Shown here in pieces: positions 16,369 through 62,222 of a stretch of DNA of 64,000 nt (position 1 is its first letter; each line of letters starts with the position of its first letter). Where the stretch lies: positions 95,854,354 through 95,918,353 of the forward strand of contig NC_057718.1 in NCBI RefSeq assembly GCF_004010195.1. The letters are read 5' to 3'. The notes beneath the pieces were generated by a model. The model had not been told where the DNA came from. It made no database searches and saw nothing but the letters and a program-made list of their open reading frames with translations. Source of the DNA: Chiloscyllium plagiosum (lineage: Eukaryota). Both the position numbers and the translations under genes were made by a program.

Positions 16369-16496
16369 AGAAGAAAGTGAGGACTGCAAATGCTGGAAGT
16401 CAGAGTCGAGAGAGTGGTGCTGGATAAGGACAGCAGGTCAGGTAGCATCCGAGGAGCAGGAGAATTGACGTTTCGGGCAAAAGCCCTTCATCAGGA
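16369..16496 (-). mobile_element. Short PLE family A insertion with intact hammerhead core (16467-16494)
   Basis: Reverse strand cctgatgaagggcttttgcccgaaacgtcaat. Flanked by agtttggaatt / agtttgggatt (TSD). Confidence 0.85.
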
Positions 16497-16729
16497 AGTT
16501 TGGGATTGCGTTTGGCATGGACTGGTTGGACCGAAGGGTCTGTTTCTGTGCTGTATGACTCTATGACAGGGTCTGAGTGGATCTGAGAAGGGAGATTGCA
16601 ATCTAGTATCAGTACCCAACTGACTTTCCTCCTATCCAAAGGTCAAAATGTATCTTGTTCTTTAATTATTGTCTGTTTTAGCTCTGCTCTCTGGTCACTG
16701 AAGATACAGTTCAGTTCAGCAATATTTAC

Positions 16730-16900
16730 AAGAAAGAAGTTGCACTCATCTATATTTTTAAAAATCCCCTTCTACGACATCGGGAAGTCCCAACGTATTC
16801 CACAGCTGGTCCAGTACTTAAGAAGTGCAGTAATCTTAATAACACAGTAATCAATCGGTGGACAGAAATAAACTGCATCAGGCAATCAGACAGTGACCGA
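16730..16900 (-). mobile_element. Deu-SINE 3' tail remnant
   Basis: aagaaagaagttgcac...tcccaacgtattccacagc...agtacttaagaagtgcagt, antisense to the tail at 28870-28985. Confidence 0.45.
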
Positions 16901-18534
16901 GACAGAATGAGGGGTACATGGACACAATTCTAAAACATGTTGTTCCTATTGGGAATTTTTAACATGTCTCCTTGGAGATAAAAAGGAAGGGTCTCAGTTT
17001 AACAGTTTACGTGAAAGATCTGTATGGAACACTGAAGCTTGATGGCTGGCTGTCTACAGTGACAAATCGAACAGGATTTGTGGGACGGTTACCCTGCCTA
17101 GCATTAGACACTTAGTGGCAGTCGATGGACAATGGAGCTTCTTTTCAGCTATGACCCACACGCATGGATAAGAACCAAGGATGAGGAAGTCAAACAGTAA
17201 ATGTGCAGCTGGAAGGTCTTTAACCAGGGCAAAATTCCCACCAGGAATAAGGAGGCTATCCCAACCCAGAGCTTCCTGGTCTGTGCAGAGATACTTAGTT
17301 ACCTGGCTTAGTTATTGCTGTCTGAGACAAACAGCGTTTGTGCAGTTCTCTTCCCATTTGGTTCAGTGTCAGGTTTTTGTGGTTAGTTTGGGCTCTGTAT
17401 GTAATACAAGGAGCCAGAATGCAAATGTTTTGCAGGCTTCAAACAGCATGAAATCTCCAACTTTGGCAGAAGTGGAAAACGTACAGGCTTGGCCATTTCT
17501 CAGGCATGTCTGAACAAGGCATGAGACAGGACTTTGGTGTGGATGGGCAGCCAGGGTGCTCTCCTGACCTGTTTGCTGTGCAGTTTTGTTCAGGAGCCGT
17601 GTGGGTGTATGGAATACTTGTCCCTTAATCTTAACTCCAAATTGTCGCCTGAAATGTTCATGACGTGGACTTACTGTGCTGCTTATACTCAGAGCAAAGA
17701 GAGGCATGTTCACTGAACTCAAATAAAATGGAAAAGTCTCAATATTTCCTCCTGCAGGTTTTTCTGATACGTTAAAAATATCCAATCTGATACCAGTCAG
17801 ACTTTGGCAACACGAGGCTTGTAGGATACCTGATCTGTGAAGTTGTCCAAACAAGGAGAAATGAACATAGAACATAGCCCTACAGTCAGAGGCAAGCCAA
17901 CTAAATATATCAAGGAAGCAAGCCTATTCAAATGAAGTGATGGGATAATTTGACACGCAATGTTGCTGAATGCTTCGATGCAAAATTAATTTGACAGAGG
18001 AACCCAAGACAGTAGCATTCATTTATTACAGGAATTTGCTGTGCTCAGGATAAATGGACTCCACTATTTTGGGTTTGTCATCTACTATATTCAGAATTGT
18101 AAATGGGAGCCGAATCATTCAGCTTTCGAGAACCTCAGCTGTTATTTTCGACTGCAAACAAAATCGAAAATGTCAAGAGTTCCCGCAGCCAAGTTATTAG
18201 GATTTAAATTATAACCACCCCTGTAAATAACTTATGCAATACATGTGGCCTTTAGGAAAGTGGCTTTATAGGTTCCAGGAGCAACCACAAGAACTATATT
18301 TTTGGGATGAACTCATGCCATATGATGGGCCAAGTGATTGTCAAAGTGCGTAATAGAAAATAACACCAACCTCAACCACATCGTGAGTGTGGTGTCATGA
18401 AGCACGTTTCACCACACAGTCACATAAAGGATAAAAGTTCAGAACGGGAAGCAGAATCGAATCACAAATGTTGCCTCCATCCATTTGGTGACGCAAACCT
18501 TCCAGGTCTTTGCAGCTCAGAAATCAATATGCGG

Positions 18535-18862
18535 AGGAGCCAGTGTTGGATTGAGGTGGACAAAGCTAAAAATCACACAACACCAGCTTATAGTCCAACA
18601 GGTTTAGTTGGAGGCACTGGCTTTCAGAGCGCTGCTCCTTCATCAGGTGGTAGTGGATTATAAGACCATAAGACATAGAATTTATAGCAAATGATTGCAG
18701 TGTCATTCAACTGAAATGATACCAGGTTTGTTCAATATATCATTTCAGTTGAATGACACTGTAATCTTTTGTGTAAATTCTATGTCTTATGATCCTGCTC
18801 CACAACCACCTGAAGAAGGAGTAGCGCTCCAAAAGCCAGTGCCTCCAAAAGAACATGTTTTA
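18535..18862. mobile_element. PLE family C fold-back (long inverted repeat)
   Basis: Left arm ...ggaggcactggctttcagagcgctgctccttcatcaggtgg...ataagacatagaattt. Right arm aaattctatgtcttat...ccacctgaagaaggagtagcgctccaaaagccagtgcctcc. Confidence 0.8.
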
Positions 18863-18979
18863 CTTTAATCTCAAAACCAAACAAGTTGTACTGAAGGTAA
18901 TTTTGACTTTGGGTGTTATTTTAAAATGATGGCACAAAATCAGCCATCCATTGCACATCATTGCCAGTTTTCGTTAAAG

Positions 18980-19293
18980 TCCATCAGGCAGAAGATACAG
19001 GAGCTTGAACACATGCACCAACTGGTTCAAGAACAGCTTCTTCCCAGCTGTTATTAGACCGATCAATGGACTCTCTAACTTAAAGTAAAGCTAACCTCGT
19101 TAATGTTGATCTTGCTTTATGCACTTTCTGTGCAGCTGTAACCTGGATGCCTCACTCTGTCTAAACACTCTGTGATCTGTATGTTCTCGTTTGCTATGAT
19201 CTGCTTGTATTTCTGGCAAAACAAAGCCTTTCACTGTACTCAGGTACATGTGACTACAATAAATCAAATCAAATCAAATCAAATCAAATCAAT
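18980..19293 (+). mobile_element. Rex1/Babar 3' end with (AAATC)n tail
   Basis: ccatcaggcagaagatacaggagcttgaacac...tttcactgtactcaggtacatgtgactacaat followed by (aaatc)6. Confidence 0.8.
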
Positions 19294-19747
19294 GCCTGAT
19301 AATATCCCAACTTCTTGGATTTGGCATTTGTAGCATTCAGGAGAATTGTGTTCCAAGTTCTCATAGCAATTTCTGTTCATAAGTTTTTGCTAGCTTTTCT
19401 TTCATCGCTGATTCTAAGATTAGGTTCCTTGTTTTGGATTCCCTTACTAGAGAAAGCAACTTTCCTATTTACACCATCAATTGGCATTCATTACTGTAAA
19501 CACTTTATAGGAGCTCGATCAACCTTCGGTCTCTTCAGGGCTCATAAACCAAGAGTATTAATTTTCTTTTATTATCTTAGGAATCATCCTCTAAGGTATG
19601 TCTTGTCTTTTGAGTAGGGAAAGAACTGAACTGCAGGATATAGGGAAAAGGCTGATTGTCCAAAATGTGTCCATCATACAATGCCCAATATGTTTCAACG
19701 ATATGGTGCTAGGAAGGAACAGGCTTCACTGGATGAGCTTCACGTTT

Positions 19748-20976: not shown

Positions 20977-22147
20977 ATAGATTTGTAAAACATATTCCTT
21001 ATCTTAAACAATGAGTTAATCGGGCTTGAAATTAAAGTTTTGAGTTCATTGGTGCAAGACAATAGAATTGTGAAAACAACTAGCATTCCTGCTCATATTA
21101 TAGAAGTAAGTTGCAATACCTTATTTTACAAGTGAAACAGTATTCTCCCTTCCCCATTCGCTGTATTGTTTCATCTTGCATTGAGCATCTCCTTGCATTT
21201 TTTTTAGTTTTGTAGTAATCATGCAATACCAGTAGGTGGTACTCTAAGTGTCCAGTTTACAATTAATCAGGAAATAAGCAACTGTGGTTCATTTAGATAA
21301 GGAAATTAATGCTTAGATTTGTCAATGGCATCTCAACTGTACATCCCTATCTTTTCTTTCTGGTACAAGGTTGGTTGAAATTTACATATCTGATCAGTTT
21401 GACCTCGGTCATCACTTCGAAGACTGACATGGGCCCTCACTTTTAACTACTGCTCTCAACAGTCCAGTTAAAAAAAAGGTATGGCAAAATATAATAGTTC
21501 AAACAGAAATTTAACTTCACTATAAATATACTTGAAAGAAATTCTCAAAAGCAGATGTATCCCAGTTTCTTCAGATCAGCTCTCCTGATTAACAAACACA
21601 GACAGATTAAAAGTTCTCAGTTTTAAATTCCAGTTTGTGTTAAGTTAGGTGGGGTAACACTGAGAGACAGGAGAAGGCTATTCAGTCCCTAGAATGTGTC
21701 CTACCTTTCAATGAGATCATGGCTGATCATTTTCCTAAATCTATACACTGCTTTAGCTTTATATTTGGAGCTTTACCATTGGCCTCATCATCCCTAACTC
21801 TAGAGAAATAAAAAAAATTCTACACTTTGATTACTTGACTATTTGCTGGATGCTGTGTGTGGATAGATGAATGGGACACAACACCATAGTGGTTAAATAG
21901 CACCACCCACAATCATCGTCCAGGAGTCACCCATGAAGATTAACCAATGGAGGGGATTCATAGGGGTCATAGCCTGAGAATTAAGACCAAACCAATCAGG
22001 AGAGATGTTAGGAAGCATTTCGACACAAAAAGGGCGGTAGAGTTTGGAAATCTATTCCAGAAAAGGTGGTGGATGCAGAATGAGTTGTTAATTTTAAATC
22101 TGAGAGAGATAAACTTTTATCACGTAAAGGAATTTAAGAGAAATGAC

Positions 22148-22805
22148 AGGTAGATAGGATAGTGAAGAAGGCGTTTGGTATGCTTTCCTTTATTGGTTAG
22201 AGTATTGAGTACAGGAGTTGGGAGGTCATGTTGCGGCTGTACAGGACATTGGTTAAGCCACTGTTGGAATATTGTGTGCAATTCTGGTCTCCTTCCTATC
22301 AGAAAGATGTTGTGAAACTTGAATGGGTTCAGAAAAGATTTACAAGGATGTTGCCAGGGTTGGAGGGTTTGAGCTATGGGGAGAGGCTGTATAGGCTGGG
22401 GCTGTTTTCCCTGGAGTGTTGGAGACTGAGGGGTGATGTTATAGAGGCTTACAAAATCATGAGGGGTGTGGATACGATAAATAGACAAAATCTTTTCCCT
22501 GGGGTGGGGGAGTCCCGAACTAGAGGGTGAGAGGGGAATGATTTAAAAGGGACCTAAGGGACAACCTTTTCACACAGAGGGTAGTGTGTGTATGGAATGA
22601 GTTGCCAGAGGAAGTGGTGGAGGCTGGTACAATTACCACATTTAAAAGGCATCAGGATGGCTGTATGGATAGGAAGGGTTTAGAGGGATATGTGCCAAGT
22701 GTTGGCAAATGGGACTAGATTAGGTGAGTATATCTGGTCGGCATGGACAAGTTAGACCTAAGGGTCTGTTTCCGTGCTGTACATCTCTATGACTCCATGA
22801 CTCTG
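22148..22805 (+). mobile_element. CR1 3' portion nested in an older CR1 end (21960-22147 and 22806-22915)
   Basis: LRLYRTLVKPLLEYCVQFWSPSYQKDVVKLEWVQKRFTRMLPGLEGLSYGERLYRLGLFSLE. Confidence 0.92.
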
Positions 22806-23853: not shown

Positions 23854-24031
23854 CTCTACCATAATCTCGATGGTATTGGATCCAAGTGTTCTTCTGATTT
23901 TGAACGATCTGCCTCTTCCGTTTGGATCTTCTGTCTTCATCCTGCCTCAGTTGGTAATACTCTTGCCGTTGAGTTACTAAGTTTTTAGGTTCAGGTCCCA
24001 TTCCAATGTTTGAGATTGGCTTGCAATACTA

Positions 24032-24370
24032 GGGTGTCACAGTGGCTCAGCAGTTAGTATTGCAGCCTTGCAGTGCCAGGGACCTGGGTTCAATTCCAGC
24101 CTTGGGTGACTGTATGCTTGGAGTTTGCACATTCTCCCTCTGTCTGCATGGGTTTGCTCCGGTTTCCTCCCACATTCCAAAGCTGTGCAGGTTAGGTGGA
24201 TTGGCCGTGCTAAATTGCCCCATGGTGTGCAGCGATGTGCAAGCTTGATGGATTAGCCATGGGAAATGCATGGATAGGATAGGGGTGTGAATTGGGTGGG
24301 ATGGTCTTCAGAGGGTTGGTGTGGATTCAATGGGCGGAATGGCCTGCTTCCACAGTGTAGGGTTCTATGT
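24032..24370 (+). mobile_element. HE1-like V-SINE
   Basis: acagtggctcagc head, gggttcaattcc B box, V-domain, tail. Confidence 0.88.
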
Positions 24371-24458
24371 CAGAGGTTCTGCCATCCAGATGAGATGTTA
24401 ACCAGAGATCATGTCACCTTGCTTTGTTAGCATAAAAGTTCCACTGACAATATTATGA

Positions 24459-24775
24459 TAGAATCCCTACAGTGTGGAAACAGGCCCTTCTGCCCAACAA
24501 GTCCATACTGGCCCTCTGCAGAGTAACTTACCCAGACCCATTACTCTATATTTACCCCTAACTAATGCACCTAACGTACACTATAGTCAATTTAGCATGG
24601 TCAATTCACCCTAACTTGTACACCTTTGGATTGTGGGAGGAAACTAGGAGGAAACCCATGCAGACACGAGGAGAACATGCAAACGCGACATAGACAATCA
24701 CCTGAGGGTGGAATCGAACCCAGGTCCCTGGCGCTGTGAGGCAGCAGTGCTAACCACTGAGCCACTGTGCCATCC
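24459..24775 (-). mobile_element. HE1-like V-SINE
   Basis: Tail-to-tail with the previous copy. ggaatcgaacc is the antisense B box. Confidence 0.88.
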
Positions 24776-25511
24776 TTTTGGAAACAGTCCTCAAGCTGCA
24801 GACGTTTGTAGAAATGATCAAACTGTAGCATGGAATACACAGGTGACCCTGTTCTGGGGTTAGAGTTGATCAAAATTTTTAAGTGACCAGCCACATAAAT
24901 ACAGTGGTTACAAGGGCAGAAGAAAGGTTAGGAATTCTGTATTAAATAACACCACCCCTAAATCTCAAAAGTCAGTCCAACAGCAAGATACAAGCCAGGG
25001 TGTGGTCAAACGCTCTGTAAGTGGCTGGATGTATGCAGCTCCTGAGGCAACAGTATAAACACTGGGCCACCATGCTGCCCTGCTTGAAACAGTCCTCAAG
25101 CTGCAGATTTTGATATAAATGGTCATCCAGAAAGCAGAGTGGCCCCCAGTGTCCTGTCAATATTTGTCCTTCAAAGAACATTGCAAAACCAAGTCATCTA
25201 ACACACAAACTTACCATTGTTATTCCTACAGTGCAACAATGACTACATTTCAATTGTATTTAATTAACTGCTCAGTACTTGAAACCTCTAGAGGTTGTGA
25301 AGGATGCTATATCAATGTAAATCTTTTGTTCTGCGACATTCAAGTTTCTGCTGGTTCAGACCGCACGTATTTCAGTTAAAACTCTGCTAGGAGGTAATGT
25401 TCACCAGTGCCTGAAACTGAAGGTATGGGGAATGTTATGGGCCCAAACAGTGAGGGAGACAGCAAATATTGTTGTGGATGAGGGAAGGGTTGCAGCAGAG
25501 GGGGAGAGCAC

Positions 25512-26235
25512 TATAGAACATAGAACATAGAAAAGTACAGCACAGAACAGGCCCTTAGGCCCATGATGTTGTGGCGAGACTTAATCCTAATGTAAAATAT
25601 AGTAATTTCACCTACGCACCCCTCAACTCATTGCTATCCATGTGCATGTCCAGCAGTCGCTTAAATGTCCCCAATGACTTCGCTTCCACCACCTCAACTG
25701 GCAATGCATTCCATACATTCACAACTCTCTGCGTAAAGAACCTCCCTCTGACGTCTCCTTTATACCTTCCTCCTAATATCTTCAAACTATGACTTCTCAT
25801 ACCAGTCAATCCTGCCCTGGGGAAACGTCTCTGGCTATTGACTCTATGTATTCTTCTCATTATTTTGTACACCTTGATCAAGTCTCCTCTCTTCCTCCTT
25901 CTCCCCAGAGAGAAAAGTCCGAGCTTATTCAACCTTTCTTCATAAGGCAAGCGCTCCAGTCCAGGCAGCATCCTGGTAAACCTTCTTTGCACCCTCCCCA
26001 AAGCCTCTGTATCTTTCCTATAGTGGGGCGACCAGAACTGGGCACAATATTCCAAGTGTGGTCTCACCAGGACTTGTAGAGCTGCAGCAAAACCTCGGGG
26101 CTCTTAAACTCAATACTCCTGTTAATGAAAGGCAAAACACCATATGCTTTCTTAAAACCCTATCCACTTGCGTGGCAACTTTGAGGGACCTATGTACTTA
26201 CATACCCAGATCCCTCTGTTCCTCCACACTGCCTG
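25512..26235 (-). mobile_element. CR1 3' portion with (ATAGAAC)n tail
   Basis: ORF 25612..26067 RPHLEYCAQFWSPHYRKD...RFFTQRVVNVWNALPVEVVEAKSLGTFKRLLD. Confidence 0.92.
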
Positions 26236-26827
26236 TCTTTAATCCTATAATCCTATTGGGGAATGGGGGAGGAAGTGAGAAATGGGTTGAGAATGAGGGA
26301 GGGGGGTGAACAGTGTTGTGGGGAGAAAGGAGAATGAATACTATGGGAGAGGTGAGGGAGGGATTTGAGCATTGTTGTGGATGGCTGAGTGAGTTTTTAT
26401 GAGAGCACGTTGTACAGTGTGGAGTTGTCAGCTCCCTTTAGAACTACGCAAGTCAATGAACTGAGACCTGACCTGAAGGGGATGACTTTTGTTCATGAAA
26501 AGAGTTTATGACTGCACTGGAATTACATCCACCAATTTGCCTCCTGTCTCTGTTTGGAACTATACTTGACCTGGAATTGGAACCACGCAAAGACTCCGGA
26601 GCAACGTAGCAAGTGGGCAGTGCTGTAGTGTTGGACACAGCTTCTTTTGATGTGACCAGAAGACTATGAGCTATTGTGACATAAAGCGGGGTGCAGCTTG
26701 ATGGGCAAGTGGTTGCCAGTCAGAATGAGTCACTGACAGCAATGCATTTCGAGTTCGAGGTTCAGAGTGCTCCCAAGGAGTTTTCTTTGACCTCTTCTGG
26801 AACTTTGGACATTTGTTTGGTGGTTTA

Positions 26828-27708
26828 GTGGAGAAGGTTATCTAAGATCACAAAGAAGTCTTGGTCAGTTGGGTCAATGGGCTGAAGAGTGGCAGATGGA
26901 GTTTAATTTGGATAAATACGAGGTATTGCATTTTGGTAAAACAAGCAAAGACAAGACTTACACAATTAAAAGTAGTGCTTTGGGTAACGTAGGACAGAGA
27001 AACCTAGGGGTCCAGATCTATAATGCTTTGAAGTTTGCATCACATGTAGATAGGGTGGTTCAGAAGATATGTAACACACTTGCCTTCATTGTTCAGACCT
27101 TTGAGCAGAGGAGTTGGGATATTATGTTGAGGATGTACAAGACATTTGTTGGGCCCCTTCTGGAGCACTATGTCCAGTTCTGGTGACCCCGTTATCGGAA
27201 GGATATTATTAAGCTGGAGAGGGTTCAGAAGAGATTTACCAGGATTTTGCCAGGAATGGAGGGTTTGAGTTATAAGGAGAGGCTGGATTGGATGGCACTT
27301 CTCTCACTGGAGTGTAAATGGTTGAGAGGAGACCGTATAGAGGTTTATAAAATCATGAGGGCATAGATAAGGTAAATGGCAGGTGCCTTTTCTCTAGGGT
27401 GGGGGATTTCAAGACAGAGATCATTTTTGGAGGTGAGAGGAGAAAGATTTAAAAAAGACACATGGAACAATTTTTTTACACAGAGATGGTTTGTGTGTGG
27501 AATGAGGTTCCAGAGGAAGTGGTGAATACAGGTCTAGTTACAATATTTAAAAGATACTTACATGAATAAGAAATGTTTGGGAGGGCATGCGGGGGTGGGG
27601 GTTGGGTGGGTATGGGCCAAGTGCAGGCAGGTGGGACTATTATGGGATTATGGTCAGCACGGACTGGTTGGACCAGCGGGTCTGTTCCTGTTCTGAATGA
27701 CTCTATGA
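26828..27708 (+). mobile_element. CR1 3' portion
   Basis: GQWAEEWQMEFNLDKYEVLHFGK...LLEHYVQFW, then the standard tail. Confidence 0.92.
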
Positions 27709-29954: not shown

Positions 29955-30184
29955 TTAATAAAGTGTGGCGCTGGAAAAGCACAACAGGTCAGGCAGCACC
30001 CGAGGAGCAAGAGAGTTGACATTTCGAGGATAACCCTTCTTCAAGTCTGGGGAAGGGGAAAGGAGCTGAGGAGATCTCTTGCTCCTTGGATGCTCCTTGG
30101 ATGCTGCCTGACCTGCGGTGCTTTTTCCAATGCCTCGTTTTATCGACACTAACTCTCCACAATCTGCAGTCTTCCCTTTCTCCT
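29955..30184. mobile_element. PLE family A fold-back
   Basis: Minus arm 29955-30070, plus arm 30075-30184. Approximate TSD tttttaatttacctg / tttctaatttacatg. Confidence 0.75.
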
Positions 30185-34600: not shown

Positions 34601-34724
34601 GTATATTTTACGTGTCACGATATTTTTAGTATATCCATCACACTACTGAAAAATAGTTTGATGGTTTTACATAAAAGCCCTCCTTTTCCTCATGTCATCT
34701 GTTATGATTCAGCCTGAAGTGGTT

Positions 34725-34822
34725 CGGTTGAAAAGTCACAGGATTCGAAACGGTTACTCTGCTTTCTCCCAACAGATGCTGCGGGCCCTGCTGAGTTTCG
34801 CCAGCAATTTCGGTTTTTGTCA
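34725..34822 (+). mobile_element. PLE family B terminus, degenerate
   Basis: cgaaacggttactctgctttctcccaacagatgctgc...ctgctgagtttcgccagcaatttc. Confidence 0.6.
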
Positions 34823-39817: not shown

Positions 39818-39924
39818 TCTCTCGTAAATGTTGATTTGCCCTTGCAATGGTATTTATTTATTTATTTTTTCTTTCTTAACCCCCACACTCCCACCTAACT
39901 GCGGTAGCAATGGTATTTATATAA

Positions 39925-40128: not shown

Positions 40129-40249
40129 TGTATTTATATGAGTTATCCTGATGACTGCAAGATGAACAACTTTGACAACATGGGCCTTTTTATTGGCCAT
40201 ACTGAGCATTCATTTTGTTGTGAATTTAAATACTACCATGTGAACATGA

Positions 40250-40778
40250 GCAGCACAGTGACTCAGTGGTTAACACTGCTGCCTGAGCACCAGGGAACCA
40301 GGTTTGATTTCACTCTTGGGCAACTGCCTATGTGGAGTTTGCACATTCTCCCTAAGTCTGCTTGAGTTTCCTCCAGCTGCTCAGGTTTCCTTCCACAGCT
40401 GAAAAAGCGCAGCATCCGAGGAGCAGGTGAATCGACGTTTCGGTCATAATCCCTTCTTCAGCATCTGCAGTCCTCACTTTCTCCTCATTGATCTTAACCT
40501 ACTGCAAATCCTCTTGCAAGGATGCCTACCTTGAAGCAGCTCTCGTCCTCCCTCTAGTCTCCAGCATCTGCAGTCCTCACTTTCTCCTAGTTTCCTTCCA
40601 CAGTCCCAAGGTCTGCTGTTTAGATGGATTGACCATGGTCAATTGCCCATAGTGTCCAGGGATGTACAGGCTTGGTGGATTAGCCATGGGAAATGCAGAG
40701 TTACAGGGGTAGGGGGTTGGATCTGGAGGGAATGCTCTTTTGAGAGTTGTTGTGAACAGCCTACCGCCACACTGTATG
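40250..40778 (+). mobile_element. HE1-like V-SINE interrupted by a PLE insertion at 40399-40589
   Basis: SINE head and V-domain. TSD gtttccttccacag at 40385-40398 and 40590-40603 flanks the PLE family A pieces. Confidence 0.82.
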
Positions 40779-41789
40779 AACATCAGGAAAATTTGAAATC
40801 ATTTCTGTCAGGTCTTCCAAGGTACACCTGTCGATAGAGGCATCTACCTTCTTACACTACCTGAGCATTTACGTAGCTTGAGAAATATTCTCACGGAAGA
40901 CCAGAGAGTGAGACTAATGGCCTCATGGATCATGCTGTAAAGGATGCCCAGAGAATTGAATCACTAAAAGCTTCAAGGGGGAAAAAAACCTATTTGTACA
41001 TCTCATCCGCCATGAAACTAGCAAAATATGTAAATCTAATGACTGTGAACATTGTCTCTTCACAATGAATCTTATTCCAAGGAGGAATACTAGGAACATG
41101 ACAAACCACCAAATTTCATTGCCAGTAAAAGAATATACGACACTAGAATAAAAAGATGTTTGATTTCAATGTCAAAGTGTTAGGAATAGGACTAGGAATA
41201 TCAAGAAAATAAAGTTTTATTTACAGCAGTTCAGACAATGGGGTATGATCAACTTGAAACTGGTGTTGAGAGAGAAATTGACTTGGAATATTCCTGTCTG
41301 TGTGATTAGATTTTAAATACTAAATATTTGAGATGTTTCCAATGTTTAACAGCTGGGAATTGTAAACCCAGCAAAACTCTCATCATTAACATTGTGAAAC
41401 CAGAAGTCAGGAATAAACAAGCACATGGACTGAAAGATCTATGATCATTATGATTACTCAGACATTTTATTGATCAGAAACACAGACTCTTATGGGTGGA
41501 AATCCAAAATGATGTTCGAAAATCCCAACTTGAGCAATCCCTTGTTTCTATCTCCTAACCCCTGTGTCCCATCACTGTAGGCATCTCTCCCCACCCTCCC
41601 CCCACAATCCCTGCTTCCCTGCACAGGGAATCCTGACAGGATCACAGTCTTCATGGCAGAGAGGAATGCACCAGAAATCAACAGCTTTTTGTCTGAATTC
41701 AATAACAAATTCTGTCAATGTTATATTTGGGCTCGCCATTGACCTCCGTGGCATTGGTGGTGGAGAGTTGAGTCAGCACAGACCTGAGG

Positions 41790-43548: not shown

Positions 43549-43854
43549 CTCGATGTAATGCTGAACCTTTCCCTCTGTTTATTTATGTTTCTAATTCATA
43601 CCTAAGATTTTGTAGTGAGGTATCTTTGTACCTAGCTTTATGAAGAATGCAATGGTGATCTTTTAACTTTAATTTTTCATTTTCCTAATTTAGACCGACT
43701 GTTTGGTGTTGGCATAACCACAACGCTGTTTGGGAGCGTGTTCCAGGAACCCTGGTTTAGGAACGATGAAGGAATAGCCATGAGGTGTGAATTGGAAAGG
43801 AACCTGGGGTGATGGTGGCATTCCAATTTGGCACAAATGTTCCTTGAAAGAGTC

Positions 43855-44354
43855 NNNNNNNNNNNNNNNNNNNNNNNNNNNNNNNNNNNNNNNNNNNNNN
43901 NNNNNNNNNNNNNNNNNNNNNNNNNNNNNNNNNNNNNNNNNNNNNNNNNNNNNNNNNNNNNNNNNNNNNNNNNNNNNNNNNNNNNNNNNNNNNNNNNNNN
44001 NNNNNNNNNNNNNNNNNNNNNNNNNNNNNNNNNNNNNNNNNNNNNNNNNNNNNNNNNNNNNNNNNNNNNNNNNNNNNNNNNNNNNNNNNNNNNNNNNNNN
44101 NNNNNNNNNNNNNNNNNNNNNNNNNNNNNNNNNNNNNNNNNNNNNNNNNNNNNNNNNNNNNNNNNNNNNNNNNNNNNNNNNNNNNNNNNNNNNNNNNNNN
44201 NNNNNNNNNNNNNNNNNNNNNNNNNNNNNNNNNNNNNNNNNNNNNNNNNNNNNNNNNNNNNNNNNNNNNNNNNNNNNNNNNNNNNNNNNNNNNNNNNNNN
44301 NNNNNNNNNNNNNNNNNNNNNNNNNNNNNNNNNNNNNNNNNNNNNNNNNNNNNN
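43855..44354. other. Assembly gap
   Basis: Run of N. Other gaps lie at 14270-14282 and 59490-60327. Confidence 1.
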
Positions 44355-45218
44355 GTTCCCCGAAACGTTCCGCAAGTAGGTGGCCTGTCTCCCCAATGTA
44401 CAAGAGACCACATTGGGTGCAGCGGATACAGTAAATGATGTGTGTGGAGGTGCAGGTGAATTTGCGACAGATATGGAAGTATCCATTGGGGCCTTGGAGG
44501 GAGGTGAGGGGGGAGGTGTGCGCACAAGTTTTGCACTTCTTGCGGTTGTAGGGGAAGGTGCCGGGAGTGGAGTTTGCGTTGGTGGGGGGTGTGGACCTGA
44601 TGAGGGAGTCGTGGAGGGAGTGGTCTCTTCAGAACGCTGATAGGGGTGGGGAGGGAAATATATCCTGTGTGGTTTTAGGGTCCAAGGCGGAAGACGAGGC
44701 ATCCTTCCTCCAGGCGTCGGGTAGTTAGGGTTTGGCGATGGAGAGTCCCAGGACTTGCAAGTCCTTGGTGGAGTGGAAGGGGGAGTTAAAGTTAGAGGAA
44801 GAATGCCTCATCTTCTACCATGGGACCCTGCACTCCCATGAGATCAATGTGGATGTCACCACTTTCCTTATTTCCCATCCCCCCCACCTTAGCCCAGTCC
44901 CAAGCTTCCAACTCGGCACTGCCCTGTTGACCTGTCCATCTTCCTTCTCACCTATCCACTCCACCCTCCTCTCCGACCTATCACATTCTCCCCCCACACT
45001 TCATCTACCTTCTGCATTCCCACCTACCTTGCCCCCGATGCCCCAACCCCTCCCATTTATCTCTCTGCACCCCAGCCCCCAAGCCTCATTCCTAATGAAG
45101 GGCTTATGCCCAAAATATGGATTATCCTGCTCCTCAGATGCTGCCTGACCTGCTGTGCTTTTCCAGCAACACACTCTTGACTCTGATCTCCAGCATCTGC
45201 AGTTCTCACTTTCTCCTT
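44355..45218. mobile_element. PLE family A inverted structure: minus GIY-YIG arm 44355-44790, plus terminal arm 44790-45218
   Basis: Minus strand YIGETGHLLAERF and cacatcatttactgtatccgctgc. Plus arm ends cctaatgaagggcttatgcccaaaat...ctcactttctcc. Confidence 0.85.
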
Positions 45219-45754
45219 TTGGGTCCTGAACCATGAAATGGGGGTAAGTTCTACCTCCCTCCTCTGTCTTGGCTCCCATACAAAGGATGTGCATGCAATC
45301 TTGAAATGAATGGTTGCTGATACCCTTGAACCATCTTTAATGTGAGTGACTATCTTCAGGGAAGTGGAGGTATTAGCAAATAAAAATTGCAAGAAAGACT
45401 GGTAGACAGATATCCCAACTTGAAATGTGTCCAGTTATTATATCTTTCCTTCTATCTCCCTTGTTTTCCTTGCTTCAGGCACTCATGTTTTTGGCTGGGA
45501 TTTTGCAGTTCATGTTTCAGCAATGGCTCTTTCTCCTGAAGACAAGGAAGGCGGCCTGTAAAGGTTTTACAATCTCTATAATATGGATTTCCTTTTTCTG
45601 AACCTGGGGAGGTTCAAAGGGGAAAAGGGATTTCCAGGCATTCGACAAGATTGATGCATTAATACAGAGCCACAGCCAATCAGTTTCTCGGATTCTCTCA
45701 GGGGGTCCAACACATTGTCTTGGATCTCATTTACCATCCCCTGAGAATAAAAAA

Positions 45755-49357: not shown

Positions 49358-49450
49358 CATACCTGATGAAGGAGCGGCGCTCCGAAAGCTAGTGTGCTTC
49401 CAATTGAACCCGTTGGACTATAACTTGGTGTTGTGTGACTTTTAACTGTA
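49358..49450 (+). ncRNA. PLE family C terminus with intact minimal hammerhead (core 49363-49391)
   Basis: catac-CTGATGA-A-GGAGC-GGC-GCTCC-GAAA-GC-TA-gtgtg. Helix I catac/gtgtg, palindromic AGCT helix III. Confidence 0.78.
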
Positions 49451-51029: not shown

Positions 51030-51285
51030 TGATTTGAAGATGCCAGTGTTGGGCTGGGGTGTACAAAGTTAAAAATCACACAACACCAGATTATAGTCCA
51101 ACAGGTTTAATTGGAAGCACACTAACTTTCGGAGCGTAACTCCTTTATCAGGAATGATATAAGGCTTTTGCCCAACACGTTGATTTTCCTGCTCCTCGGA
51201 TGCAGCCTGACCTGCTGTGTTTTTCCAACACCACTCTAATCTTGACTCTAATCTCCAGTATCTGCAGTACCCACTTCCGCCTGTA
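51030..51285. mobile_element. Head-to-head PLE family C (minus) / family A (plus) junction
   Basis: ...ctttcggagcgtaactcctttatcagg|aatgatataaggcttttgcccaacacgttgattttcctgctcctcgg... Confidence 0.75.
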
Positions 51286-51772
51286 CGTGAGCTTCCAATT
51301 CAGCCATGGTTAGTAAGTAGGTGTTCATTGTAATGACCAGAAGAACCACTCATGGTTTGACAAGCCACTGAGCTTCCACAGTATTGGATTCACCCTGAGT
51401 GCACATTCGGGAAGTGGTTGGAATCTGTGCTGTGGTTTAAATCCATTTAAATAAACCTAATATCCAAATCACGCAGTGAAGCCCTTGTTTAGATCAATTC
51501 TCTAGAAACCTATAAATAAACAGCAACTCTCAGCTAACATAAAAACTGCACACTGGTGTGGAATTTGCATGTTGTGAGGAGGTGCCAGTTGCTGCCAGTG
51601 TGTTGTGACAGGGAGGTGTAAAAACCAGGCAGAGCTCCGATCTTGGTAGTTACCCACTGGGCATCTTGTTAGAATGCACATCTCTGGGAATATCAGCTGG
51701 AAGTGGAATGAGACTCATTTGAGATCTCCCCCGGTTGAATAGGCTGCTGACACACAGGCCATGACTGAGAGT

Positions 51773-51980
51773 TGAAAATGTGTTGCTGGAAAAGCGCAGC
51801 AGGTCAGGCAGCATCCAAGGAGCAGGAGAATCGACGTTTCAGGCATGAGCCCTTCTCCAGGAAAAGGGCTCATGCCCGAAACATCGATTCTCCTGTTCCC
51901 TGGATGCTGCCTGACCTGTTGCGCTTTTCCAGCAACACATTTTCAGCTCTGATCTCCAGCATCTGCAGCCCTCACTTTCT
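51773..51980. mobile_element. PLE family A fold-back with 14-bp TSD
   Basis: TSD ccatgactgagagt at 51759-51772 and 51981-51994. Arms meet at gagcccttctccaggaaaagggctc. Confidence 0.88.
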
Positions 51981-52139
51981 CCATGACTGAGAGTGAAAAG
52001 CATGGAGAACGGCAGCTATAACAATGTATCTCAGTGTTGAGTTCCTTCAGGGAAATTTCAAAGAAAATGAAGGGCTATGTGGTGGAAGGCTTGGGAGAAT
52101 AGGCAGGTTTTGAATTACTGTCGGTTTATTTTCATCTCC

Positions 52140-52644: not shown

Positions 52645-54495
52645 GCTCCAACTACAGAGAGTTGTGAACACAGTCCAGACCAGCACGCAAACCAACCTTC
52701 CATTTATGGACTCTATTTACACTGTGGAAAGACAGCCACGTCATTAAAGAGCTCTCCCACCCTGGTTCTAAACACTTTTTTCATAGTTTCATAGTAACAG
52801 AAGCAGGAGTAGACCATTGTGGCCTGTGCTGACCCATTCATTAAGATCATGGCTGATCTAACCATTATCTCAGCTCCTCCTACCTGCAATATTCCCGTAA
52901 CCCTTAATTCCCCTACCATGCAAAAAACATCCAACTGTGTCTTGAATATATTTAATGAAGCTGCCTGTACTGTTTCCTTGGGCAGGGAATTCCATAGTTT
53001 CACTGCTCTCTGGGAAAAACAGTTCCTCCACATTTCTGTACTAAATATACTCCCCCTAATCTTGATGCTATGTCCCCTAGACCCAGTCTCACCCACCAGC
53101 GGAAACAACTCGCTTGCCTCTATCTTATCTATCTCTTTCATAATTTTATATGTTTCTATAAGATCCCCTCTCATTCTTCTAAACTCTAGTGAGTACAGCC
53201 CCAGGCGGCTCAACCTCTCCTCACAGGGTAACCCCCTCATATCTGGAATCAACCTGGTGAAACTCCTCTGCACCACCTCCAAAGCCAATGTATCCTTCCT
53301 CAAGTAAGGAGACCAGAACTGCTCACAATACTCCAGGTGCGGCCTCACCAACTCCTTGTACAATTGCAGCAGAACCTCCCTGCTCATAAATTCAATCCCT
53401 CTTGCAATGAAAGCCAATATTCCATCTGCCTTCCTGATTCCCTGTTGCAACTGCAAATCAACTTTTAGCAATTCATGTACGAGCACTCCTAAGTCCCTCT
53501 GCACAACAGCAAACTGCAATCTTTCACCGGTTAAGTAATACTCCGGCCTAATATTTTTACCTGCAAAGTGGATGACCTCACATTTACCAACATTGTACTT
53601 CATCTACCAGACCCTTGCCCACTCATTTAACCTATCTAAATCTCTCTGCAGCCCTCCACATCCTCTGCACAATGCTGAGAGGCACTGATAAAATATCTTC
53701 TGTAGTAGCATGGCCTGGTGAAAGCTTACTAGGCCCATCCACCCGAATTCAATACATCAAAGCTCCCCTTTGCACTGTAAAAGCCAGAGCTTCTTTTTCA
53801 ATGCCTTTCTTTATTTCCTTTGTTATCTAAGGCTGGGTCTTTCTACCCTTGCTATCCCTGTTTTTGACCGGAATATACTTCCCTCGCGCACTGTGAAAAA
53901 TCTCTTTGAAAGTCCTCCACTGTTCCTCCATATAGCTTGTGTTCCCAGTCTCATTTAGCCAAATCCTTCCTCATCCCTTTAGAGTCTCCCTTGTTTAAGC
54001 ATAACATCCGGGTTTTAGATGATATTATGCCACCTTCCGTTTGTATCTGAAACTCGAAGATAGTGTTGTACTCTTTCTAGAGGATCCTTAACTACAAGAT
54101 CATTAATTTTCCCTGTTTCATTACACAGGACCAGATCTAAGATCGCATGCTCCCTTGTAGGTTCAGCAACATGCTGTTCAAGAAAGTTAGTCTTGCATCA
54201 GGCAGAAGACACAAAAGCTTAAACACACCTACCAACAGGTTCAAGAACAGCTTCTTCCCCGCTGTTATTTGGCTTATGAGTGGACCTCTCACATTTCAAA
54301 TCTAATGTTGATCTTGCTTTTTGTGCACTTTTTTGTAAGTTTGTGTTCCTCTCTATATAACAGGGAAAAGTTACAAGCTGTAAGTTTGTGTTCCTCTCTA
54401 TGATCTTTGTGCATTATGATCTGCCTGTATTGCTTGCAAAACAAAGCTTTTGACTGTACCTCGATACATGTGACAATAATAAATAAAACTGAATT
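52645..54495 (+). mobile_element. Rex1/Babar 3' portion split by a CR1 insertion (pieces 52645-52780 and 54193-54495)
   Basis: LQRVVNTVQTSTQTNLP...ctcccaccctgg, resuming at catcaggcagaagacacaaaagc...gtgacaataataaa. Confidence 0.72.
52782..54188 (-). mobile_element. CR1 LINE, internally deleted (RT C-terminus 52782-53690; endonuclease-proximal part 53720-54188)
   Basis: ORF 52713..53603 MKYNVGKCEVIHF...RPHLEYCEQFWSPYLRKD...LWNSLPKETVQAASLNIFK. Upstream minus strand FLEQHVAEPTREHAILDLVLCNE. Confidence 0.92.
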
Positions 54496-54789
54496 AAATA
54501 AAGCTTTCCACTTTCTCCATGCTTTCGGTCAGTGATCCCAAGACCTCCTTCTGTGACTCGATTAGACAGCGTTCCTGTGATATATCTTGGAAAGTTCCTC
54601 ATGGTGAAATGTTATATAAAAATGCATATTATTGATGTTGTTATTGCAAATAAACAAGTAACAAATTGCAGTAATTACATGTACAGGCTGCATGGAGTAG
54701 ATTTTCAACATGCTGTTCAGGCCTAAAACTGATGAAGCTATGTGGTCCCCTGTATTCAAAACCATTGATTACAACGTAAAGAGATGATG

Positions 54790-54962
54790 TGGTGTTGGAC
54801 TGGGGTGGACAAATTAAAAATCATACAACACCAGATTATAGTCCAACAGGTTTATTTGGAAGCACTAGCTTTTAGAGCACTAGTGATTGTGGAGCTTCTG
54901 AAAGCTAGTGCTTCCAATTAAACCTGTTGGACTATAACCTGGTGTTATGTGATTTTTAACAA
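54790..54962. mobile_element. PLE family C fold-back
   Basis: aaaaatcatacaacaccagattatagtccaacagg...cactagcttt / aaagctagtg...cctgttggactataacctggtgttatgtgattttt. Confidence 0.82.
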
Positions 54963-55094
54963 TGTAAAGAGAATTTTCTGACATGTTTGGGAGGGGTTGC
55001 TGAGCCACAAGTTGGAAATCTAACCACCTTCCTCTGCACTTTCTTTCCCTAAATGATCTATTGATCATTAATATTTTATAAATGCACTAGTTTT

Positions 55095-55390
55095 TGAGTT
55101 TGATTTATTGTTGTCACATGTACCGAGATACAGTGAAAGATATTGCTTTGTGTGCTATACATCCAGATTGCACCAGTCACAGCGCATCAGGGTGACGGAA
55201 CAGAGTGCAGGATACAGTGTTGGAACCATAGAGAAAATGCAGAGAGAGAGATCAGAATCAACATTTGAGAGGGCTGTTCAAAAGTCTGATAACCACAGGG
55301 AAGAAGCTATTTTTGAATCTGTTCGTATGTGTATTCAAACTCTTATATCTTCTGTCCAGTGGAAGAGGGTGAAAGAAAATATAACCGGGA
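55095..55390 (-). mobile_element. Rex1/Babar 3' end
   Basis: tttgatttattgttgtcacatgtaccgagatacagtgaaa...cttatatcttctgtccagtggaag. Confidence 0.75.
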
Positions 55391-55429: not shown

Positions 55430-55560
55430 TTCTGAAGAAGGGCCCCTGGACTCTACTTGTTAACTCTGCTTTCTCTGCATAGACGCTGCCAGACCTGCTG
55501 AGTTTCTCCAACAATTTCTGTTTTTGTTCCAAATCTTCAGCATCCACAGTTCTTTCTTTG
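55430..55560 (+). mobile_element. PLE family B terminus
   Basis: ttctgaagaagggcccctggac...gttaactctgctttctctgcatagacgctgccagacctgctgag. Confidence 0.65.
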
Positions 55561-58800: not shown

Positions 58801-59338
58801 AATTTAATAGTCTGGATCATTCACATGCTAATGTACTAATTGAGTCACTGATAGGATAATTGACACCTCGGCATAACATGAAATGTTTAGGTGCACTGGC
58901 AGATTGAGTTCGGTTTAGTTGTGGCAAATGAGACGTTTAATCTCACAACTATGTGCATCACTTAAATGGATTCCATTCTGGAATAAAATGAGATCAATTA
59001 TGGGGAAACAAATAGGAAATGGTTAGATAGGTTCATTATGTGATAATGAGCAGATTATGATGTACAAGTGCATAAAAGCAATCAGGTTTCACTGCTCAGA
59101 ACGTCTGTTTTTATATAGATTTGACTGCACAGGAAATAGAGATTATTGCAACAGAAGTTGTAGGGAGACCACCCAGTTTTTGCTTTTGGAAAAAAAAGAC
59201 ATCAGAACTAAGACATACAGATAAATGTTTAGCCCTTGGCCTGTCTATGTTAGTTCAACCTAGCTCGGGCAGTCAATGTATCAGTTCCATTGGCTTCATT
59301 CACCCTGGCCTGGAGTAGATGGGAGTTAGTCAGTGGTA

Positions 59339-60524
59339 AAAACAATGACTGCAGATGCTGGAAACCAGATTCTGGATTAGTGGTGCTGGAAGAGCACAGC
59401 AGTTCAGGCAGCATCCGAGGAGCAGCGAAATCGACATTTCGGGCAAAAGCCCTTCATCAAGAATACAGGCAGAGAGCCTGAAGGGTGGANNNNNNNNNNN
59501 NNNNNNNNNNNNNNNNNNNNNNNNNNNNNNNNNNNNNNNNNNNNNNNNNNNNNNNNNNNNNNNNNNNNNNNNNNNNNNNNNNNNNNNNNNNNNNNNNNNN
59601 NNNNNNNNNNNNNNNNNNNNNNNNNNNNNNNNNNNNNNNNNNNNNNNNNNNNNNNNNNNNNNNNNNNNNNNNNNNNNNNNNNNNNNNNNNNNNNNNNNNN
59701 NNNNNNNNNNNNNNNNNNNNNNNNNNNNNNNNNNNNNNNNNNNNNNNNNNNNNNNNNNNNNNNNNNNNNNNNNNNNNNNNNNNNNNNNNNNNNNNNNNNN
59801 NNNNNNNNNNNNNNNNNNNNNNNNNNNNNNNNNNNNNNNNNNNNNNNNNNNNNNNNNNNNNNNNNNNNNNNNNNNNNNNNNNNNNNNNNNNNNNNNNNNN
59901 NNNNNNNNNNNNNNNNNNNNNNNNNNNNNNNNNNNNNNNNNNNNNNNNNNNNNNNNNNNNNNNNNNNNNNNNNNNNNNNNNNNNNNNNNNNNNNNNNNNN
60001 NNNNNNNNNNNNNNNNNNNNNNNNNNNNNNNNNNNNNNNNNNNNNNNNNNNNNNNNNNNNNNNNNNNNNNNNNNNNNNNNNNNNNNNNNNNNNNNNNNNN
60101 NNNNNNNNNNNNNNNNNNNNNNNNNNNNNNNNNNNNNNNNNNNNNNNNNNNNNNNNNNNNNNNNNNNNNNNNNNNNNNNNNNNNNNNNNNNNNNNNNNNN
60201 NNNNNNNNNNNNNNNNNNNNNNNNNNNNNNNNNNNNNNNNNNNNNNNNNNNNNNNNNNNNNNNNNNNNNNNNNNNNNNNNNNNNNNNNNNNNNNNNNNNN
60301 NNNNNNNNNNNNNNNNNNNNNNNNNNNGCTCCTTTAGGGCCTTGGATAGAGGTGAGGGAGGAGGTGTGGGCGCAGGTTTTACAGTTCCTACGGTGGCAGG
60401 GGAAGGTGCCAGGATGGGAGGGTGGGTTGTAGGGGGACGTGGACCTGACCAGGTCGTCACGGAGGGAACGGTCTTTGCGGAAGGCGGAAAGGAGTGGGGA
60501 GGGAAATATATCCCTGGTGGTGGG
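59339..60524 (-). mobile_element. PLE family A insertion spanning an assembly gap, 14-bp TSD
   Basis: TSD gttagtcagtggta at 59325-59338 and 60525-60538. Terminus left of the gap, Cys-rich pre-GIY-YIG region right of it. Confidence 0.8.
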
Positions 60525-60541
60525 GTTAGTCAGTGGTACCT

Positions 60542-60717
60542 GTTGAGCAGGAAAATCAATATTTCGGACAAAAGCCCTTCATCAGGAATTCCTGATGAAG
60601 GCTTTTTGCCCAAAACATCAATTTTCCTGCTCCTCAGATGCTCCTGACCTGCTGTGCTTTTCCAGCACCAACTCTAATTTAGACTGATTTCCAGCATCGG
60701 CAGTCCTCACTTTTGTC
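60542..60717. mobile_element. PLE family A fold-back with a perfect 26-bp central palindrome
   Basis: ccttcatcaggaattcctgatgaagg at 60576-60601. TSD cagtggt(a/g)cct. Confidence 0.87.
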
Positions 60718-60815
60718 CAGTGGTGCCTTTTGCCAATTTGTGATCAGTCAGTTTTACTGAGCGAGAGAGAATACAATTGTCTCTGATCCCTGCTCTGCCA
60801 ATGTATGAGGAACAT

Positions 60816-61108
60816 TAAACTAGCACTGCTGTCTCACACTGCCAAGGACCTGGGTTCAATTTTAGCCATGGGTGACTATCTGTCTGCACTTTCTCCCCCC
60901 GTGTCTGCGTGGGTTTCCTCCTGGTGCTCCGATTTCCTCCCACAGTCCAAAGATGTCCATCGTGTCCAGGGACACGCAGGCTAAGTGGGAAATGTGGGGT
61001 TATGGAGATAGGGGAGGAGGAGGATGGGTCTGGGTGGGATGCTGTTTGGAGGGTCGGTGTGGACTCGATGGGCTGAATGGCCTGCTTCCACACTGTCGGG
61101 ATTCTATG
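60816..61108 (+). mobile_element. HE1-like V-SINE
   Basis: tagcactgctgtctcac, gggttcaattt, V-domain, tail. Confidence 0.85.
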
Positions 61109-61169
61109 AAGAGTCAGTGCCTACAGAGGATGGGATCAAATGTTGGGAAATGCAGGAGAGACTTGAGTT

Positions 61170-61497
61170 TGGATGAAGCTTCACTGATCCGGAATATTAA
61201 CGCGGTTTTCTCTTTCTCTCCACAGATGCTGCCAGACCTGCTGAGTGTCTCCAGCATTTTCCATTTCTATGTCCGATTTCCAGCCTCTGCCACATCTTGC
61301 TTTTGTAGATTTCTTGGGGTTTGATTCCCAAAAGTGAAGACTCACTGCTCTGCAAATAAAAAGGGAAACATAGCGGAAGCTGCAAAACTGAAATGGAAAC
61401 AGAAATTGCTGGCAGAACTCAGCAGGTCTGCAGCGTCTGTGGAGAGAGAGCAGAATTAATGTGTCAAGTTGAAAATGACACTGATTCTTCTTCAGAA
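61170..61497. mobile_element. Two old PLE family B termini, tail to tail (+ 61170-61305, - 61378-61497)
   Basis: ctctccacagatgctgccagacctgctgag and its reverse complement ctcagcaggtctgcagcgtctgtggagag. Confidence 0.65.
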
Positions 61498-61544
61498 TAG
61501 AAGCTGAATGTAGCCTGACCGTGGTTTTGTATAATTGAAGCATC

Positions 61545-62222
61545 ATTACAAGGGTGTTGCCTGGTCTCAATGGTCTGAGTTATAGGGAGAGGTTAGACAG
61601 GCTGGGACTTTTTTCTAGGTAAAAACAATGACTGCAGGATGCTGGAAACCAGAGTCTAGATTAGAGTGGTGCTGGAAAAGCACAGCAGTTCAGGCAGCAT
61701 CCGAGGAGCAGGAAAATCAACATTTCGGGCAAAAGCCCTTCATCAGGAATACAGCATTCCTGTATTCCTGATGAAGGGCTTTTGCCCGAAAGGTCGATTT
61801 TACTACTCCTCGGATGCTGCCTGAACTGCTGTGCTTTTCCAGCACCACTCTAATCTGGGACTTTTTTATCCTTTCTTGAGGTGTGCAAGATCATGAAAGG
61901 TATGGATAAGGGGAATGCAGTCAGCTTTTTTTCCGCTAGGTTGTAGTATTGAGGGCCAGAGGGCCTCAGTTTAAGGTTAGAGGGGAAAGAATAAAAGGGA
62001 ACCTGAGAGGCAAAGTTTTACATAGAGAGTGGTACACTTGTGGAATGAGCTGCCAGAGGAAATGGTTGGGGCAGCTACTTTCACAATATTTCAAAGGCAT
62101 TTGGACAAATACACGGAAAGGCAAGGATTAGAAAGAGATGGGCCAAGTGCAGGGGAATGGGGTTAGCATGGGTGGACATTTTGGGCCAAAAGATCTGTCT
62201 TTGTGCTGTAGGACTCTATGAC
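61545..62222 (+). mobile_element. CR1 3' portion interrupted by a PLE fold-back
   Basis: ctgagttatagggagaggttagacaggctgggac...tggaatgagctgccagaggaa...gactctatgac. Confidence 0.8.
61615..61854. mobile_element. PLE family A fold-back with 13-bp TSD
   Basis: TSD ctgggactttttt at 61602-61614 and 61855-61867. Centre cttcatcaggaatacag-cattc-ctgtattcctgatgaag. Confidence 0.9.

Follow-up and report, generated by a model that had tools for sequence, protein, structure and literature searches.

5' breakpoints of short Penelope-like element insertions cluster at the front edge of a predicted hammerhead in a window of the Chiloscyllium plagiosum genome

Families A and C and their predicted hammerheads

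We analyzed a 64,000-nucleotide stretch of the Chiloscyllium plagiosum genome (assembly GCF_004010195.1, contig NC_057718.1, positions 95,854,354 to 95,918,353, forward strand; "the window"), which is vertebrate DNA with a GC content of 43% and three N gaps. The window holds many insertions of two repeat families, A and C, which we assign on sequence grounds to the Penelope-like elements (PLEs) and each of which has a predicted minimal type I hammerhead. The pattern described here bears on how PLEs finish their insertion, why their inverted repeats form, and what the hammerhead is for. We found that the 5' breakpoints of these insertions pile up non-randomly just upstream of the hammerhead core, and we consider this feature to be real. 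Element positions are numbered with the C of the CUGANGA core as +1.

In both families, the predicted hammerhead consists of CUGANGA, one extra base, a helix II of 4 to 5 bp (+9 to +20/21), GAAA, a palindromic 4-nt helix III, and a helix I of 2 to 3 bp, with the cut predicted after +28 in family A and after +29 in family C. A hammerhead descriptor gave 13 matches in the window, 12 of them inside A or C arms. The lone match outside these copies, at 56263, came with the relaxed descriptor and is probably due to chance. Rfam reported no hammerhead family in the window; its 13 matches were all below the gathering score and were mostly microRNA models on palindromes.

A 91-residue fragment on the minus strand of a family A copy (44356-44628), one of four fragments scanned, matched Pfam GIY-YIG with an E value of 0.0084, below the curated cut-off. 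Five relatives of this fragment were found among 22 candidates, the best two being shark proteins P0001 (71% identity) and P0002 (60% identity), and P0002 carries RVT_1 (below cut-off) followed by GIY-YIG (above cut-off). By these coding matches, family A is an endonuclease-bearing PLE, and the window contains no intact PLE open reading frame (ORF). Both the window ORF at 43690-44628 and P0002 have a cysteine-rich linker before GIY-YIG. Such a Zn-finger-like linker is named for Neptune and Nematis (PMC8557442). By linker motif, the window elements would be Neptune-like. Family C, of which no window copy reaches more than 75 nt upstream of the core, is a putative PLE by its predicted hammerhead, its tail, and its architecture.

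Long family A copies are 68 to 77% identical to one another, and the subfamilies diverge upstream of about -4. In two A copies, the six bases before the core (45086-45091 and 888-893) resemble what we take to be the initiator consensus; other subfamilies match it less well. The family A 3'-end motif had no match in viral, genome, or metagenome contig collections.

Nineteen insertion events

BLAST searches with arms from the window gave 23 family A and 10 family C matches, which we grouped into 19 insertion events. A prediction made earlier from the sequence alone (the original prediction) had named six inverted pairs with their 3' ends outward and two single arms. All eight are real and come first below, but that list was incomplete, as 11 further A or C events follow. 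"The cluster" refers to the stretch from -13 to +5 described in the next section.

16369 to 16497, minus strand: single arm of family A, core C at 16494; the 5' end is at -3 and the 3' end is of the long class; target site duplication (TSD) candidate 16358-16368 / 16497-16507
39238 to 39463 (39237 event): fold-back of family A; minus arm to -4 (alignment possible to -12) and plus arm from +4, 94.7% alike; 14-bp TSD 39223-39236 / 39460-39473
39925 to 40131: fold-back of family C; minus arm to -6 and plus arm from +2, 97.4% alike; 10-bp TSD 39913-39922 / 40130-40139
49361 to 49445 (49358 event), plus strand: single arm of family C with its 5' end at -2 and a short 3' end at about +83
51768 to 51982 (51773 event): fold-back of family A; minus arm to -3, plus arm from about +7; 14-bp TSD 51759-51772 / 51981-51994
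54791 to 54959 (54790 event): fold-back of family C whose centre is rearranged; minus arm to +14 followed by -1 to -13, and plus arm from +19; TSD of 14 bp with one mismatch
60545 to 60713 (60542 event): fold-back of family A; loop-free palindromic centre at -4/-4; left arm of only 45 nt; marginal 11-bp TSD
61615 to 61856: fold-back of family A; turn at -8/-9, with deepest end and partner-arm start both taken as -9; arms 95.9% alike; 13-bp TSD 61602-61614 / 61855-61867
3504 to 3989, minus strand: two family A arms (two events) of different subfamilies, 3518-3606 to +5 and 3896-3989 to +31, with a 289-bp inverted host segment between them
51033 to 51282: head-to-head chimera; family C minus arm to -1 joined at the shared core to a family A plus arm from about +2
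40405 to 40588: fold-back of family A; minus arm to +1, plus arm from about +100; 14-bp TSD
29960 to 30184: older fold-back of family A, outside the cluster; minus arm to about -28 and plus arm from about +30; TSD candidate of 12 bp with one mismatch
39680 to 39813: fold-back of family C with deleted centre, outside the cluster; minus arm to +46, plus arm from about +15 (deepest end, +15)
18533 to 18850: fold-back of family C, outside the cluster; turn about 75 nt upstream of the core (-75)
14079 to 15597: long fold-back of family A reaching the endonuclease-coding region; TSD candidate of 9 to 12 bp
44355 to 45217, plus strand: long rearranged family A copy; GIY-YIG fragment 44356-44628 on the minus strand; core C at 45092; reference for public contigs and reads
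59341 to 60525, minus strand: long family A copy, 5'-truncated and spanning an N gap; TSD of 14 bp; lies inside the left target duplication of the 60542 fold-back
1 to 1020, plus strand: long copy of family A that runs off the start of the window; its hammerhead lies within a 102-nt tandem duplication

The last four copies are long, extending at least 740 nt upstream of the core. The value of -13 for the 54790 event was read by hand at the junction, since the automatic alignment halts at +14 before an internal deletion. A coding fragment without a terminal arm (4919-5089) was kept out of the event counts.

Seven of the eight named events have a candidate TSD, which is strong in five; the original prediction had noted duplications of 10 to 14 bp at most of them. 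The match is exact at 39237 (14 bp), 51773 (14 bp), 61615 (13 bp), and 39925 (10 bp), and it holds one mismatch at 54790 (14 bp) and at 16369 and 60542 (11 bp, marginal; 14 of 287 random position pairs equalled the marginal 11-bp score). The TSD search found none at 49358 and none at 51033-51282. The TSD of the long copy at 59341 (region 59325-60541) has 8 nt in common with that of the 39237 event, which may reflect target preference or reuse.

At their 3' ends, the shorter arms mostly stop at +80 to +95 and the longer ones at about +105 to +127. The pairs have one complete and one shorter arm, as had been described, and this is the published PLE tail. In the copy that ends at 40588, the normal 3' end is followed by 67 nt that are unique in the window and then by a repeat of the last ~35 nt (40486-40588), which may be an ORF start plus tail. 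At its long 3' end, family A has a run of pyrimidines with AG often following, which resembles a splice acceptor (45217, 40588, 61615, and 1021); the same is seen in the loose-end letters of public contigs.

All 10 junction centres that we compared differ from one another within the window. This bears on the idea of MITE-like (miniature inverted-repeat transposable element) hairpins, that is, of a self-propagating subfamily copied as a unit from one or a few masters. The resemblance in size and shape stood, and copy number is high (more than 100,000 contigs matched per public run). However, a self-propagating MITE does not fit junctions that are all different, arm lengths that vary between copies, TSDs that vary from 10 to 14 bp, or long copies that have the same ends and reach the GIY-YIG region. 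We regard this as the least probable of the explanations weighed here.

5' ends cluster at the front edge of the hammerhead

The eight named events have their deepest 5' ends between -13 and -2, so they do turn or stop near CUGANGA and helix II as proposed, and they do so in both families. Across the whole catalogue, 11 of 19 events end inside one 20-nt stretch, from -13 to +5. To judge this clustering we used a scan statistic, so that the position of the peak was not presupposed. A fitted exponential null gave clustering of this degree in 0 of 100,000 simulations, a two-exponential mixture in 2 of 100,000, drawing the deepest of two arms in 13 of 100,000, and a flat null up to -14 in 32 of 200,000. 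Thus, the peak over a smooth 5'-truncation background was significant under every null on the full set of 19. It was reached in 3 to 7 of 60,000 simulations after four possibly rearranged events were dropped and in 2 to 14 of 60,000 for the 11 TSD-bounded events only, a range that still held with 39237 taken as -4.

The 11 clustered events have a standard deviation of 5 nt in position and 21 nt in length, a descriptive comparison since the events were selected by position, and this suggests that the stop is tied to sequence position. Single arms whose 3' starts differ stop at -3, -2, and +5, where an inverted partner is not needed.

Could smooth 5' truncation merely look clustered, through homology that ends at the core, stubs that were missed, or palindrome centres that were later deleted? 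Family A subfamilies differ upstream of about -4 and alignments end there, some centres are clearly rearranged (39680 and 54790), and the window was picked because the pattern was noticed in it, with the subset of events absent from the original prediction not significant by itself. Against this, TSD-bounded and fold-back events have no hidden upstream DNA because what follows directly is the TSD or the second arm, and the clustering remains significant in the TSD-bounded subset. Missed stubs do not explain the clustering either, as short stubs are detectable yet absent: planted arms were recovered in 13 of 13 cases at each of 50, 60, and 80 nt and in 10 of 14 at 30 nt, and a laxer search for short 3' stubs found no further A or C stub in the window, only family B and chance matches. 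Deletion of centres would scatter ends in the 3' direction rather than pile them up. We therefore hold an artefact or later decay to be very improbable.

Family B, an older third family with similar downstream sequence and decayed hammerheads, lies at 2860-2950, 13440-13660, 34720-34820, 55430-55560, 61170-61310, and 61360-61480; the 13440 copy has a 62-nt tandem repeat, and the 61170 and 61360 copies stand tail to tail. Its six candidate copies were aligned as an out-of-sample test and excluded from all counts because their 5' ends could not be reliably placed (one looks long, one ends at about -10 by a 7-bp repeat, and the rest are unclear).

Helix II is read through

Reverse transcriptase (RT) moves 3' to 5' on RNA, so a stop at a structure is expected at its 3' foot, here about +21 to +30. 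The original prediction proposed that RT might stall or switch templates at the ribozyme fold or at helix II. The hammerhead region is indeed the most stable 30-nt local structure in five of six folded templates (-8 to -10.7 kcal/mol), and partner arms start at +2 to +19. Among the 13 short events, defined as those ending at or 3' of -14, the deepest arm nevertheless passes helix II in 11; one ends inside it (+15), one near the cut site (+31), and none at +21/+22. Helix II is merely 4 to 5 bp and, once passed, is already unwound and cannot stop the enzyme. A stall thus fits poorly, and we rate this model as improbable. A protein bound to the ribozyme could still act as a roadblock; that is our own suggestion, cleavage being protein-assisted in PMC11167929.

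The breakpoints lie about 25 to 40 nt 5' of the predicted cleavage site, close to the 30 nt first estimated, which means that the template was continuous across that site, either uncleaved or re-ligated. This agrees with PMC11167929, and both the tail and an uncleaved template are to be expected because that study shows the tail between two RT start sites and no need for cleavage. The pile-up argues against the cleavage site defining the template's 5' end.

Native inverted repeats straddle the core

In one A subfamily and in family C, copies that bear upstream sequence fold into a hairpin over CUGANGA (about -10 to +8 in the A copy at 894 and -17 to +15 in the C copy at 18810), and the junctions at 39237, 39925, and 54790 match these repeats, which at the latter two are short repeats in family C. 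The 39237 junction is alignable to native upstream DNA to -12 with no switch, and it is that DNA that folds into a hairpin over the core. These repeats alone might set the junction if cDNAs (complementary DNAs) of any length folded back or annealed to a second cDNA, overhangs were trimmed, and single arms were opened hairpins. Self-priming has been proposed for palindromic junctions (PMC3846280), and the arms of most pairs are 90 to 97% alike. However, terminal snap-back is predicted to be equally or more stable at +45 to +60 in three of five templates, where only one arm ends (39680, +46). The A59460-type subfamily has no hairpin over the core and still turns at -4 and -9, and snap-back cannot yield arms from two subfamilies. 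Snap-back energy alone, when tried, failed to predict the junctions. We consider this explanation unlikely. The template-switch half of the earlier proposal is partly right, with native repeats matching several junctions but equally stable sites hardly used. Since the +45 to +60 sites served only one arm and the stops of single arms coincide with those of the pairs, the native repeats probably decide how ends join and not where synthesis stops.

Two loci have heterologous arms

Two loci join arms of different origin. At 3504-3989, the two copies of a duplicated 14-nt target, inverted relative to each other (3504-3517 and 3882-3895), flank a 289-bp segment of inverted host repeat, the original order of which is given by related copies at 22147-22554 and 26900-27454; about 29 nt were lost at the far break. 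One arm is 92.5% identical to the 61615 arm and has the short 3' site, and the other is 73.3% identical and has the long 3' site. At 51033-51282, the arms come from two families. Arms of different subfamilies or families cannot be made by snap-back of one cDNA and therefore suggest that each insertion drew on two RNAs. Both loci could arise if the two strands were primed on separate RNAs, in which case arms from two RNAs at one locus would record in the genome the two-strand priming known from in vitro work.

Public contigs and RNA reads

On 44360-45260 we placed contigs of three public runs from two organisms (102,909, 104,761, and 111,679) and one RNA run (4,192 reads). The 3' loose ends of the contigs lie at 45216-45217 and at 45173-45177, the latter continuing for about ten more family-like letters, and so correspond to the two 3' end classes, 30 to 35 nt apart. 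Among 15 joints listed (507 more exist), four change strand, with one side at -5, -5, -4, and +4. These joints agree weakly with the window pattern because the subfamilies diverge upstream of about -4 and the reference copy is itself diverged. Loose 5' ends at 45120-45125 were rejected as real ends; they are clipping artefacts in which the loose letters are the family's own hammerhead.

RNA read depth, both directions summed, was 1,549 at 45104-45134, 13 at 45042-45072, 99 at 44949-44979, and 39 to 87 in the coding bins 44360-44669. This looks like a cliff at the hammerhead, which we do not take as proof given the diverged reference and the differences among subfamilies upstream. Over the 3' module (45104-45227), the reads show a 1.2- to 2.5-fold strand excess that rises toward the 3' end.

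A proposed run-off model with priming of both strands

Read-through of helix II, a stop fixed in position, and single arms together fit run-off at the 5' end of the RNA. Our best reading, to which we give a probability of roughly one-half, is that both target strands serve as primers, that cDNA synthesis then runs off the RNA at a 5' end lying just upstream of the core, and that the products are joined via inverted repeats. The A and C stubs would then be dead-on-arrival insertions of endonuclease-bearing PLEs. The PLE protein would nick both target strands 10 to 14 nt apart and prime cDNA at both nicks, each cDNA beginning at an internal start site, either at about +85 to +95 or at about +120 to +127, so that a long and a short arm would result. 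Each cDNA would run off the RNA 5' end. Free cDNA ends might then be joined to each other through the short native repeats straddling the core, forming fold-backs, or to host DNA, leaving a single arm; long copies may come from read-through tandem transcripts. We infer the RNA 5' end, the priming from both nicks in vivo, and the joining step. There is a precedent in vitro, where the anole PLE protein cleaved and extended both strands, used two internal start sites, and did not need hammerhead cleavage (PMC11167929).

Several points weigh against this reading. The sample is 19 events from one window, chosen since the pattern was noticed there. Taken alone, the 11 events that the original prediction did not name put at most 4 in any 20 nt, which 7,992 to 15,111 of 60,000 simulations reached; this subset is not significant because the clustered events had already been removed from it, and the signal therefore rests on the complete catalogue. 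The ends are scattered over 18 nt rather than fixed at one base, and two short events reach -28 and -75. In Drosophila virilis, the Penelope transcription start is separated by 46 nt and a 75-nt intron from helix I downstream of it (PMC2377424; PMC4209133), versus about -10 here. At the -5 position of the public-contig joints, the upstream divergence of subfamilies also sets in. The RNA run, a poly(A) single-cell library unsuited to the purpose, listed no accumulation of RNA ends. Most pairs have arms 90 to 97% alike (84 to 89% in three older or CpG-decayed pairs), which fits snap-back of one cDNA equally well, so arm likeness in most pairs does not discriminate between one cDNA and two. Lastly, nested insertion followed by inversion or deletion could also make both heterologous loci: one nested insertion is present in the window (the 59341 copy within the TSD of the 60542 event), and the 51033-51282 chimera is the one with no detected TSD.

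We also weighed the possibility that the upstream edge is a splice acceptor, by analogy with D. virilis (PMC4209133), and rejected it, as no exon sequence common to the junctions is seen.

A more specific form of the run-off reading is tentative, and we would not yet expect it to hold in full. Retroviral minus-strand strong-stop DNA is a short cDNA that ends at the 5' end of its template. Possibly, each PLE insertion draws on two RNAs of different subfamilies or families, with symmetric priming and strong-stop-like cDNAs that end at the front edge of the hammerhead, and the core with its flanking repeats serves as a strand-joining signal and not as a nuclease. If true, two-RNA symmetric priming would account at once for the inverted pseudo-long terminal repeats (pseudo-LTRs), for the tail being on one side only, and for the many stubs headed by a hammerhead. 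Given the very high copy number in this genome, the sharp accumulation of 5' ends immediately upstream of the ribozyme would naturally report the template 5' end.

Other repeats in the window

A tandem repeat region with long open frames of repetitive peptide lies at 41700-43300. Other long inverted pairs, made of fragments resembling long or short interspersed elements (LINE- or SINE-like) 0.5 to 1.2 kb apart, lie at 1631-2509, 8088-9015, 24031-24776, 25856-27359, and 54191-55366.

Comparison with known systems

Head-to-head inverted pseudo-LTRs, junction palindromes, a tail on one arm, and TSDs have all been published for PLEs (PMC3846280; PMC8557442). The window units show the same inverted 5'-truncated copy with a TSD and a tail (30 to 40 bp) on one end; here, one arm is about 30 to 35 nt shorter. 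They differ from the published complex insertions in being mostly 100 to 250 bp long with 5' breakpoints piled at the front edge of the hammerhead, and in the excerpts of those two papers breakpoints are not mapped against the ribozyme. We found no report in the open-licence literature of PLE 5' breakpoints clustering at the hammerhead edge, and such mapping does not appear in the excerpts of PMC5753468, PMC2377424, or bioRxiv 10.64898/2026.07.22.740005. Thus, the elements themselves are ordinary PLE stubs of known architecture, and what is new is the breakpoint pile-up and the heterologous pairs.

The hammerheads of families A and C have the same geometry as the minimal type I hammerheads of metazoan PLE terminal repeats (PMC4209133). 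That study attributes many solo motifs to truncated PLEs and reports opposite-strand pairs 100 to 700 bp apart in Schistosoma. It proposes cleavage and circularisation, whereas the window stubs hold the whole motif and end 25 to 40 nt 5' of the predicted cut. The anole Poseidon PLE (PMC11167929) is like the window elements in having two internal RT start sites with the tail between them, though by linker motif it would belong to a different clade. In vitro, uncleaved RNA was its dominant substrate and a 5'-truncated template shortened the product; genomic 5' ends and the formation of inverted units are not addressed in the excerpts of that paper.

Non-LTR retrozymes (bioRxiv 10.64898/2026.07.22.740005) are also short non-coding hammerhead sequences from PLE terminal repeats and include dispersed monomers. 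They are head-to-tail tandems, whereas the window units are head-to-head or solo, bounded by TSDs, and not permuted at the cleavage site. The sole direct tandem among the A and C copies is the 102-nt duplication inside a long copy. The uniform master copies and fixed-length TSDs of MITEs are likewise not what we see.

In L1 twin priming, the other target strand likewise supplies a second primer, but what becomes inverted is an upstream, non-overlapping part of a single RNA. In the window, by contrast, the two arms are copies of one and the same segment, and they can derive from different RNAs.

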